A stretch of 63,802 bases of DNA, the filler included, from Chrysochromulina tobinii (Eukaryota): the NCBI GenBank assembly GCA_001275005.1. It is 12 parts of 12 records of this genome, joined end to end, with 100 filler letters (N's around TTAATTAATTAA, not from the genome) between each part and the next. Parts side by side here need not be neighbours in the genome. Positions count along the whole stretch, not along the records: positions 39,317 to 54,014 come from JWZX01000312.1; 11 more parts are not named here. One strand, written 5' to 3'. Below are positions 45,801 through 48,800 of the stretch, piece after piece (the first letter of the stretch is position 1; each line of letters begins with the position of its first letter). The notes beneath the pieces are model-generated. The model was not told where the DNA came from and did not search any database. It worked only from the letters and a program-made list of their open reading frames with translations. The position numbers and the translations under genes are program-made.

Positions 45801-48800
45801 GACTCTTCCAAATTAGGGAGTGCGAGCGAGGCAGGGACGGCTGCCAAATTAGGGAGTGCGACCGTTCGGATTCAGGTGCCTTCCGATTACGTCGAAGGGA
45901 GGCCCCTGATTACCTCTGATTACCCCTGATTACCCATGATTACCTCCCTCATCAGGTGCCTTCCGATTACGTCGAAGGGAGGCCCCTGCTGATCAAGGTA
46001 GGTGCAGCCACCTTTCGCGTCCTCGTCCCGCCAGGCACCGCCCCCGGCGCGCAACTCAACATCAGCGTGCCGTGGCCGCCTGTGCTTGCTCCTCAGCCGC
46101 CCGCCCCAGCGCCCGCCCCAGCGCTCGCGACAGCGCCGTGGCCGCCCATGCTTGCTCCTCAGCCGCCCGCCACAGCACCCGCGCCGGCACCCACGTCAGC
46201 GCCCACGACAGCGCCCGCCACAGCGCCCACGTCAGCGCCCGCCACAGCGCCCACGTCGGCGCCCAATGGCTCGCAAGCAGTTACCGGTGTGGCTGCGGAG
46301 GTCGCTGCCGAGGTCGCCTCGCGATTATGGGCGGCAAGCAGCCCTAATATGGCAATCAGCCCTAATATGGCAATCGGCCCTAATATGGCAAGCAGCTTGG
46401 CGAATGCCATGGCTGGGCAGCACGCCGGCGGTTTCATGGCTAATGCCTTGGCTGCTGGGCAGTACACCTCCGCCACGCAATTAGCAGCGGCAGCAGCGGC
46501 AGCGGCGGCAGCGGCTGCAGCGGCTGCAGCGACAGCATCAGCGTCGTCGTCGGCAGCGGCAGTAGCAGCAGCGGCGGCGGCAGCAGCCAGAACTTTGCCA
46601 TCCAATGCTGTAGCTCCAACTATGGGGGTGAAGGCTGAGGCGGGAGCGCCCGGCACGACGCTCTCTCGAAGCGCTCTCGACGCAATCTCGACGCAATCTG
46701 GAGCGCCGGGACGGGCGGCGCCTGTGATGGCGGCGCCCATCAAGTCGGAGTCAGGTCTTGCCGCGACGGCGCCTGTGATGGCGGCGCCCATCAAGTCGGA
46801 GTCAGGTCCGACCGCACTGCCACGCGACCTGCGTGCACCACCTTCTCTGCCTTTCCCGGCACCACCGTTGGAGCTTCAGGCGTCGTCACGGGCACCACCG
46901 TGCACCCAAACGCTGCCGCCGCCGCCGCCACCCCCACACGCACCGGCGCTCCCCGAGGGCCTGAGATGGAAACACTCCCCGTCACCGGCACTCCCCGGCG
47001 CACCGGAACCACCCTCCCCGAAACCGGCACTCCCCGGCGCACCTGAACCACCCTCGCCGCCGTCCTCGCCGCCGGGTGACGCGCCCGCAGATATGGAAAT
47101 GGACCCACCGCCCGCCGCGCTGCCTTCGGTCATGCCACCGCCCGCCGCGCTGCCTCCGGTCATGCCACTGCCCGCTGATATGGAAGTGGAGCCACCGCCC
47201 GCCGCCGTGCCTGCGGCCATGCCACCGCCCGCCCAACACAGCGCCCAGACGTGTCACGTGGGCGCCCGTGACGACGCCCGCGGTGCCCGTGACGACGCTC
47301 CGACGTGTCACGTGGGTGCTGTGACACCTTCATGCGGTGGCGATTCCGACGCTCCCAAAGAAGGCAACCCTCCCAAAGATGGCAACCATCCCAAAGATGG
47401 CAACCCTCCCAAAGATGGTAACCTTCCCAAAGATGGTAACCATCCCAAAGATGGCAACCTTCCCAAAGATGGCAACCTTCCCACAGAAGACGCCCCGGCA
47501 GCGGCCGCGACCCCTCACGACCCCGCCGCTGCGTCGCTCCCCTCACCTCAGCTCCCCTTGCCTCAACCGTCGCCTCAGCCGTCTTGCCCGGCGTGCCGAG
47601 GCCGGCACCTCGCCCACACGTGTGGCAAGGGCATCAAGCGGAAAGCTAAAGACGACGAGGGAGTAGCGCTCAAGGAGGCGGTGGTGCGGGAGGCGGCACT
47701 GGCTGGGGCGACAGCAGGCCGGTCCAACGGCAGCTCAGTTTCGTCATTGAGTCAGCTCAGTTTAGGCAGCGGGCCGGTGGTGCGCATGCAGCTCACCGTC
47801 GTCACCGGCGGCGTCCCGGGCACTTCGGGCGTCGTCACGGGCACTATGGGCGGCGTCACGGGCACTGCGGGCGTCGTCACGGGCACCACCTCTCTTCGGG
47901 TGCAGCTCTCCGTCGTCAGCGCGCGGACCGCTGGAGGAGCGACGACCGCGGTGGCGCAGGGCCACGGCACGTCCTTCCCCGCGCCGCCGCCGTTCCCAAG
48001 GCCACCCCCCTTGCCGCCTCTGTCGAGCCGAGTGCAAGTTCCGGCATCGCAGCAGCATAAGTTGCACAAGTTCCAGGTGTTGCTGACGTCGTATGAGAGC
48101 GTACGGGACGACCCGGAACTGTTCCGGTCTATTCACTGGCGCGCGCTGGTAATCAGCTCTGATGATCTCTGATGACCTCTGATGACCTCTGATGACCTCT
48201 GGTGACCTCTGGTGACCTCTGATGACCTCTGATGACCTCTGATGACCTCTGATGACCTGTGATGACCTCTGGTGGCCTCTGATGACCTGTGATGACCTCT
48301 GATGACCTCTGATGACCTCTGATGACCTCTGATGACCTCCCTCATCAGGTGATCGACGAAGCGCATCGGCTCAAGAACAAGGACTCGTTAATGGCCGCTG
48401 ATCTACGTGCACTGCGAACCGAGCATACCGTCATGCTCACCGGCACGCCGCTCCAAAAAAGCACCACGGAGCGGGCCTTCCTCCGCATGCAAGTGCTCAC
48501 CATGGCGCCCGCCCCTCGTTCCCCACAGGCACGCCGCTCCAAAATAGCACCACGGAGTTGTGGGCGCTGCTCTCGCTGCTCGACCCGCAACTCTTCCCCT
48601 CCCTCGAGGACTTCCTGCGTCGCTTCGGCAAGCTCACCGACTCTCACCAGGTCGATGAGCTGCGCGAGAAGCTGCGCCCGTATTTGCTTCGCCGCCAAAA
48701 GGGCGATGTGCTCTCGGGCACGCTCGCGCCGCTGGAGGAGGTGATGATTGGGGTCGAGCCTCTGATGGCCTCTGATGACCTCTGATGACCGCTGAGGACC

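Follow-up and report, generated by a model that had tools for sequence, protein, structure and literature searches.

The window analyzed, a stretch of 63,802 nucleotides (nt) from Chrysochromulina tobinii (assembly GCA_001275005.1), was made up of contigs chained by 11 spacers of 100 nt. It includes a gene for a CHD7-like chromatin remodeller (hereafter the CHD gene), the nearest named homologues of its protein being those of Prymnesium parvum (78%) and Haptolina ericina (77%). One intron of this gene, the focal intron of this study, is filled by a tandem array of 10-nt units. Introns with such arrays are referred to as class A, and introns with a second shared intron end, which lack the decamer array and have the same exon-copy architecture (see below), as class B. 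The gene and the focal intron were annotated as follows:

42898..50490, plus strand: CHD7-like chromatin remodeller gene, modelled in part; 1952 stop-free codons once 14 introns are removed
48149..48348, plus strand: focal class A intron, GT-AG, phase 0; 6-nt exon-start remnant (5/6), 18 decamers, A of the last unit at -17, acceptor end; RNA joint in 4/4 runs

The focal intron consists of 8 nt, followed by 18 decamers (12 of them exactly CTCTGATGAC) and a 12-nt end (CTCCCTCATCAG). RNA contigs skipped it exactly as GT..AG in 4/4 runs, and six further introns up to position 49992 were also skipped in 4/4 runs, resulting in seven joints altogether. Removal from RNA at GT/GC..AG, the property considered for membership in the U2-type spliceosomal introns, was found at the 48149-49992 joints and at 40072-40195. 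The array noted in a preliminary description of this DNA is therefore real and lies in a spliced GT-AG intron; it has 18 decamers rather than about 19. The other copies listed there are present in the window as well, while one of the units quoted, the exact 10-mer CTCTGATTGC, had no occurrences in it, although CTGATTGC was common. Among the 37 open reading frames (ORFs) of relatives that span the site, the focal intron was present in 36 and the site was empty in one. The exon-copy remnant (5/6 nt) was not significant by itself, as 12.6% of mismatched pairs reach 5. Folding of the whole focal intron revealed no stable structure, and was worse than that of shuffled sequences (z = +1.5). The complementarity between the last unit and the end, also proposed earlier, was confirmed for the focal intron (7 bp; its last 30 nt gave z = -2.3), while the seven other introns folded showed it less strongly (z from +0.5 to -1.9), so that it was notable only in the focal one of the eight. 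No Rfam family was matched on the contig carrying the focal intron. Summed read depth over the fillers was about 10^4 vs. about 50, which indicates that the filler is abundant and is not a copy number.

The preliminary description missed a duplication of exon sequence that brackets the filler. Metagenome contigs were scanned for two perfect units, the acceptor not being required, which yielded at least 137 stretches in at least 132 loci; the surveyed loci were thus chosen for two perfect units, and were drawn from several samples. An upstream copy of the exon start (score of at least 10) was detected at 64/145 class A and 15/30 class B acceptors, with null values of 2.0% and 1.4%, respectively (counts cover loci and window, with tandem and array-like sites included). 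After dropping 27 sites with array-like downstream sequence, 51 duplicated sites remained, with copies 10-44 nt long, of which 27 were perfect, 17 showed 90-99% identity and 7 fell below. In a test that made no use of the acceptor, 64/131 array blocks were bracketed by a direct repeat vs. 3.1% in the null, about five of these being self-matches of the array; 26 of the 64 bracketing repeats start at AG/G, 16 hold AG/G inside, 5 end at AG, and 17 are of other kinds. The exon-start copy, seen in about half of these introns, supplies the donor. At 28/51 sites the copy adjoins the array directly, with an overlap of at least 3 nt in 15/28 (13/26 without two self-matches) compared to 12.7% in simulations. 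Moreover, 18/51 duplicated sites directly follow another acceptor, forming tandem units that mostly carry its local variant, while 33/51 have no preceding acceptor. Some tandem series open with an exon copy, and others with an unrelated donor. As seen at the RNA joints, exon copies leave splice junctions ambiguous by up to 30 nt, an ambiguity that misleads gene callers.

Strand and context were evaluated in 62 loci (at least 1500 nt, one block each) by comparing the longest open frame beside the array on each strand with Pfam. Matches were found on the same strand in 15/62 loci and on the opposite strand in 0/62. A codon model, a rough test of strand (right for 39/48 known sense windows and 6/6 exons of the opposite-strand gene), called 90/118 array blocks sense. 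Class A arrays are, for the loci tested, genic and sense-oriented. The equal abundance in antisense and intergenic positions named earlier as the mark of an ordinary minisatellite was not observed, and the statement that the array is always in sense orientation has one exception, at 44260-44309.

The remaining features of the CHD gene, including this exception, are the following:

43633..43725, plus strand: class A intron with its boundary set by frame and homology, a candidate source; rare filler variants and first 6 exon bases in common with the next class A intron
44260..44309, minus strand: 50-nt inverted copy, perfect and inside an exon (within 44171-44415), of the stretch that opens the next intron (44417-44466)
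44416..44497, plus strand: class A intron, candidate recent gain; perfect 20-nt copy of the downstream exon start; present in relative P0240, absent in P0241
44575..44739, plus strand: class B intron (the other shared end, ...CACCACGGCG...CCCCACAG); repeated exon-start copies, 12/13 nt
45387..45487, plus strand: class A intron; 11-nt exon copy; GATTAC variant in common with 45876-45955
45535..45604, plus strand: class B intron; exon copy decayed
45876..45955, plus strand: class A intron; perfect 33-nt exon copy with a 7-nt overlap at the join to the array
48443..48528, plus strand: class B GC-AG intron, polymorphic; exon copy of 28/29 nt; RNA 4/4
48741..48826, plus strand: class A array with a different acceptor, ending TTCACAG; decayed exon copy of 14/19 nt; RNA 4/4
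48982..49178, plus strand: composite intron; duplicated exon end, donor and array ahead of a class B unit; RNA 4/4
49234..49398, plus strand: two tandem class B units removed together, each opening with an exon copy; RNA 4/4; one unit only in relative P0006
49501..49592, plus strand: mirror-type intron; donor in filler, acceptor from a 34/35 nt copy of the upstream exon end; RNA 4/4; read through in 5 ORFs of relatives
49907..49992, plus strand: class B-derived intron; 5-nt exon copy, longer in one lineage of relatives; RNA 4/4

Among the 14 introns of the CHD gene, six open with a copy of 11-33 nt of the start of the next exon and a seventh with one of 14/19 nt, while one closes with a 34/35 nt copy of the end of the preceding exon. 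The exon copy at 48741 spans six codons in four ORFs and in the window type, and two codons in two other relatives; relatives differing in copy length thus show how exon copies erode. Relative P0006 lacks the front part of the composite intron at 48982-49178. Class B sites in the window were located at 44575-44739, 45535-45604, 48443-48528, 49234-49398, 50497-50581 and 50809-50882, and on the minus strand near 12366-12440. Seven class B sites were counted in the CHD gene vs. 23 in all fetched loci, suggesting that they may cluster by gene. In a composite, intron-like stretch at 50652-50882, a copy of the upstream exon end stands after each of two GCGACTGATT arrays and a class B unit comes next, and the ORFs of relatives disagree on which unit leads. 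The clusters P0164-P0168 represent divergent CHD haplotypes or paralogues, altered at conserved helicase positions.

Elsewhere in the window, class A arrays were found at five further sites:

28711..28818, plus strand: class A intron in a transposase-like gene; frame stop-free once removed
34990..35033, minus strand: acceptor end of class A, truncated by an adjoining assembly spacer
40072..40195, minus strand: two tandem class A units removed together, in the opposite-strand gene, labelled FAIM/PDZ in the preliminary description; RNA 3/3; exon copy (12 nt) at the head of the second unit, no relation to the exon start in the first donor
40622..40736, minus strand: array of 12-nt units ending TGATGGCAG; splicing deduced from frame
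40895..41071, minus strand: class A intron with 10- and 12-nt units mixed, ending GCTCATCAG; from a parse of the window

The closing motif, earlier taken as constant, is not, because of the differing ends at 40622-40736, 40895-41071 and 48741-48826. The stretch 40072-40195 was skipped in 3/3 RNA runs and not in the DNA run. Back-to-back AG/GT units at this site and at 49234-49398 were removed as one piece in RNA contigs, for which recursive splicing and choice of the distal acceptor are candidate explanations. The intron at 28711 was present in 12/30 members listed of the transposase-like cluster, the other members not spanning the site, and the site was empty in two relatives at 61-63%. The transposase-like gene itself (28232-30418) matched no Pfam family; its Atlas features lean weakly to RAG1/Transib-like proteins (0.92), which is a lead only.

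At the 3' end of class A introns, the A of the last unit was located at -17 in 98/118 acceptors, and T and A were better kept there than in the preceding unit. The last unit also differed from the inner ones in being GATT more often (69/118 last units vs. 105/577 inner units). In the acceptor pattern used, the last 9 nt were set and two cores had to be present, at any position. Branch sites follow the consensus YURAY, and the A at -17 fits a putative branch site, in agreement with the CTRAY-like unit pointed out at the outset. Regarding the array, 358 unit variants were distinguished, clustering by array, and a variant unit was followed by the same variant in 232/1148 cases vs. 1.9% in shuffles. 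Variant units thus recur next to each other at about 10 times chance, indicating that existing units were copied rather than freshly synthesized from one template; slippage-type growth, one of the two routes suggested before, is supported by this pattern.

The source of the fillers was evaluated by comparing introns within and among loci. The distance of the terminus from the consensus was 1.31 in introns with a perfect copy (n = 16) and 1.35 in those without a copy (n = 54; p = 0.68), and the fillers of the 16 perfect-copy introns were all different. Since perfect-copy introns were no closer to the consensus, no single young master was evident. Filler similarity was higher within loci (8.35) than under label permutation (5.08; 85 sites, 41 loci, p = 0.0002), also without the richest locus and the window (p = 0.0012), the same-genome group being delimited through the prefix of the contig names, with the window taken to belong to it. 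The shared exon-start prefix was likewise longer within loci (2.25 vs. 1.83, p = 0.005), and both measures were correlated (rho = 0.26, p = 0.008). None of the 8 top similar pairs checked was in paralogous exons. In the CHD gene, two pairs of introns in non-paralogous exons illustrate this kinship: 43633 and 44416 have rare variants and 6 exon bases in common, and 45387 and 45876 have GATTAC units and 4 bases in common.

Precise empty sites were found in ORFs of relatives at 44416 (P0241), 48443 (the intron missing from 4 and found in 3 of the 7 ORFs covering the site), 48149 (the focal intron, 1/37), 49501 (5 ORFs) and 28711. P0241, 88% identical, lacks the 44416 intron and yet keeps the next one, and three ORFs of relatives contain an intron without counterpart in the window. 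In P0156, an orthologue of 84% identity located on a 10-kb contig, five positions that are occupied in the window are read through; it may represent an intron-poor lineage. The ORFs with empty sites in the CHD gene read into other introns, and are thus genomic or part-spliced. In a further locus represented in two samples (L014 and L059), a mirror-type intron differs by an array of about 170 nt, with exons about 99% identical.

The inverted copy at 44260-44309 belongs to an in-frame insertion of 117 nt (39 codons), composed of the intron piece and short copies of nearby exon sequence, and placed between two chromodomain regions of the CHD protein. Relative P0240, 97% identical, has both neighbouring introns and lacks the insertion. 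A DNA contig of normal depth extends across the left junction of the insertion, and an exact look-up of the insertion-bearing ORF gave no match. The insertion, a single event that made no intron, shows that multi-step copying from nearby templates, the array included, happens in the CHD gene.

Taken as a whole, these introns belong to a genome-wide family defined by a copy of the next exon start, an array of 10-base repeats and an acceptor end that is fixed. They likely arose by microhomology-mediated template switching that copies intron ends in cis, in the course of DNA replication or repair, the template likely being an existing, often nearby, intron; this is the process that we favor, with moderate confidence. 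In this process, whose steps, direction of gain and enzyme we infer from the above patterns, a growing strand that is 10-44 nt into the exon would slip onto an intron repeat unit via 2-7 matching bases, the array supplying a matching stretch every 10 nt, and the array would then be copied through the branch-like last unit and the AG. When the template is the intron just upstream, copying would run on and generate tandem units, a structure that is present in the sequences and whose units were removed together in RNA. When it is another intron, the strand would return at a G, GT or few more bases shared with the target, so that the first copy of the leftover duplication would begin with the GT or GC of the donor. 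As the first duplicate copy serves as donor, the mRNA would remain unchanged. In a mirror event, the filler would carry the donor and the duplicate would supply the acceptor. Subsequently, as the variant successions, copy lengths and empty alleles suggest, arrays would grow or shrink by slippage, exon copies would decay or be overwritten, and precise empty alleles would likely arise by collapse between direct repeats, while selection would keep only sense, splice-competent products. The focal intron would be best explained, with an equally moderate confidence in this reading as a whole, as an older member of the family with its exon copy worn down to 5/6 nt. More tentatively, intron ends might act as self-propagating modules without transposase or reverse transcriptase, the array serving as a landing strip that leads to branch site and acceptor, with host template switching breeding introns from neighbours and direct repeats deleting them, in a genome-wide birth-death cycle polymorphic in living populations.

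Several observations weigh against template switching as the source of these introns. About half of the arrays, that of the focal intron included, showed no detectable duplication, and 23/51 duplicated sites had extra bases between copy and array. Local kinship, modest on average, stemmed from some of the pairs, and could also result from gene conversion between neighbours; terminal identity was not higher locally (0.55 vs. 0.55), in a comparison for which register shifts, contig spacers and the mixing of samples were confounding factors. The filler of 49501-49592 had no second copy in the window. The result on the master covers the window and the fetched loci, and a mobilising enzyme or a master may exist elsewhere in the genome. 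The empty sites were compared among relatives and may reflect gain or loss, some of the empty alleles being more simply losses: the 48443 intron is missing in the alleles closest to the window, and the focal-empty P0231 matches a haplotype carrying the focal intron, and could also represent part-spliced RNA. Finally, one intron position is also occupied in the distant paralogue P0011, which fits old positions.

These last observations are those expected if old introns had been remodelled in place, with slippage duplicating the boundary, gene conversion homogenising the ends, and all differences being losses via direct repeats, with no new positions. Empty alleles that look derived, the position in common with a distant paralogue, tandem units with an unrelated first donor, and a terminal divergence equal in young- and old-looking introns are all in line with such remodelling. 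It is nevertheless rather unlikely, considering that intron positions vary among the transposase-like relatives, that filler similarity tracks the exon-start prefix, that 33/51 duplicated sites lack a preceding acceptor, and that P0156 reads through occupied positions, with the reservation on its lineage given above.

Insertion of a short mobile element or an excised intron RNA, by target-primed reverse transcription or partial reverse splicing, would leave a target duplication of variable length, with a 3' end that is exact and a 5' end that is ragged. A variable duplication, a fixed 3' end and 5' microhomology are the hallmarks of non-long terminal repeat (non-LTR) insertion, and all of them were found here. 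Moreover, introners of non-LTR origin have been reported (PMC12130899, in the part of the text available). Against this stand the lack of a young master, with fillers akin to their neighbours rather than independent copies of one source element, the absence of an A-rich tail, the mirror-type introns, which get their acceptor from the duplication, and the inverted DNA-level copy, which holds an exon-derived piece and no acceptor. We consider this route improbable, slightly more so than remodelling; for class A, the tests performed favor local copying over a mobile family.

Iterative, telomerase-like synthesis of the array with the acceptor formed by fold-back copying, the second route suggested in the preliminary description, accounts for arrays that begin in register at microhomology and for an end complementary to the commonest unit. 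It is very unlikely, given that the variants cluster within arrays instead of spreading as independent errors from one template, that no Rfam family was found on the contig, that haptophyte telomerase makes TTAGGG (PMC3622300, as far as the accessible text goes), and that the ends ignore the local unit: with fold-back at each locus, GATT arrays should end in CAATCAG or TAATCAG, and 0/119 ends do, 5/6 all-GATT arrays ending in TCATCAG. A single ancestral fold-back origin of the acceptor end is possible. An ordinary minisatellite merely located in introns would show the slippage dynamics and the length polymorphism between samples, and is just as poorly compatible with the strand and gene bias in the loci tested, the fixed spacing to the AG and the bracketing duplications.

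Template switching of the type known as FoSTeS (fork stalling with a switch of template) or MMBIR (break-induced replication mediated by microhomology) joins nearby, short templated pieces at microhomology. Templated insertions made by polymerase-theta end joining (PMC12153051; for this and the following sources, comparisons refer to the portions of text available) similarly consist of short nearby pieces joined at microhomology, as at 44260-44309. In the literature found, none of these processes was described as giving rise to introns on a genome scale. In Emiliania huxleyi, introns reportedly carry 10-11 bp tandem repeats with strand bias (Read et al. 2013), for which no origin or bracketing duplication is known to have been given; the likeness lies in the haptophyte host, the intronic location, the period of about 10 nt and the strand bias. 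GC donors are common in the same species (PMC4028052).

A further resemblance is to the acceptor-carrying introners of Symbiodinium and Polarella (classes 1, 4-6, 8, 10; bioRxiv 10.1101/2020.10.14.339549; PMC9860276), in which the donor comes from the first duplicate copy and the acceptor from the insert, the mRNA remains unchanged, and insertions are genic and sense-oriented. Those introners have duplications of 3-9 bp fixed per family, often inverted ends, and near-identical copies, whereas the introns described here show variable duplications of 10-44 nt, junction microhomology, no master, and tandem and mirror forms. For Chrysochromulina, PMC9860276 shows an introner that itself contains the donor and has a duplication of 4 bp. 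With respect to DNA-transposon introners in general, a splice site from the duplication and sense orientation in genes were found here; a fixed short duplication (3-9 bp), terminal inverted repeats (at its left end, the filler is variable both in register and in sequence, and the terminal hairpin is not kept) and near-identical young copies of a master were not. The family thus works like an acceptor-carrying introner, but without fixed short duplication, inverted ends or master copy (PMC12130899, PMC9860276).

Intron gain by break repair (PMC3020277, PMC3296678) resembles the present case in the direct repeats at splice sites, the microhomology, and the precise loss via repeats, and both boundary direct repeats and junction microhomology were found here. 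The filler in break repair is a captured foreign fragment, in a subset of introns, whereas the present introns are filled by a shared intron end that is ready for splicing and akin to its neighbours, at about half of the sites examined. In tandem genomic duplication (Rogers; Hellsten 2011, PMC3265369), a duplicated coding stretch also gives a splice site in one step, but both sites derive from an AGGT inside the duplicate, while here branch region and acceptor come mostly from the filler; an exon-made intron with both sites from AGGT was not found (acceptor of classes A and B from filler, AG/G inside 16/64 blocks, several of them tandem units). Break-repair and duplication gains are the closest to the present case, the new element being a shared intron end as filler, at large scale. 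Literature on the Chrysochromulina tobin and Phaeocystales genomes, Emiliania expressed sequence tags and an introner review did not, in the sections available, describe long duplications of exon sequence in the introns of haptophytes, and literature searches yielded no account of such an architecture either; the supplements of PMC9860276 and Read 2013 may bear on it.

The origin of spliceosomal introns outside transposon bursts is a long-standing open question, and the source of a new intron is rarely traceable. Here, one gene and many loci display neighbours that resemble a source, scars at the junctions, intermediates in tandem, forms that have decayed and alleles that are empty, and as DNA and RNA runs from cultures of the organism exist, gain and loss are directly measurable. 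If true, copying of intron ends would represent intron-making without a transposon, and would account for how the 10-nt repeats of haptophyte introns, with their strand bias, came about.

Beyond class A, other 10-11 nt tandem arrays were observed at 20550-21033 and 30455-31954, and AT-richer arrays of 10-11 nt come after the transposase-like gene, at 30455-32024. The period, and not only the class A unit, is common in this genome. A period of about 10 nt is close to the helical repeat of DNA (compare bioRxiv 10.64898/2026.08.08.743475). In viral contigs, two class A patterns gave 0 matches and class B gave 1, at a contig end, a result that is not informative; that class B intron end (L001:3001-3060) lies at the tip of a contig filed as viral, and may be host-derived or a chimeric end. 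Among other repeats in the window, a coding repeat of 147 nt with 8.5 copies occupies 13330-14585, and by eye we take it to be FG-GAP-like. Related repeat-protein genes (72-85% identity) were found at 26822-27245 and 35329-38728 in the window and at another locus (L011/L012).

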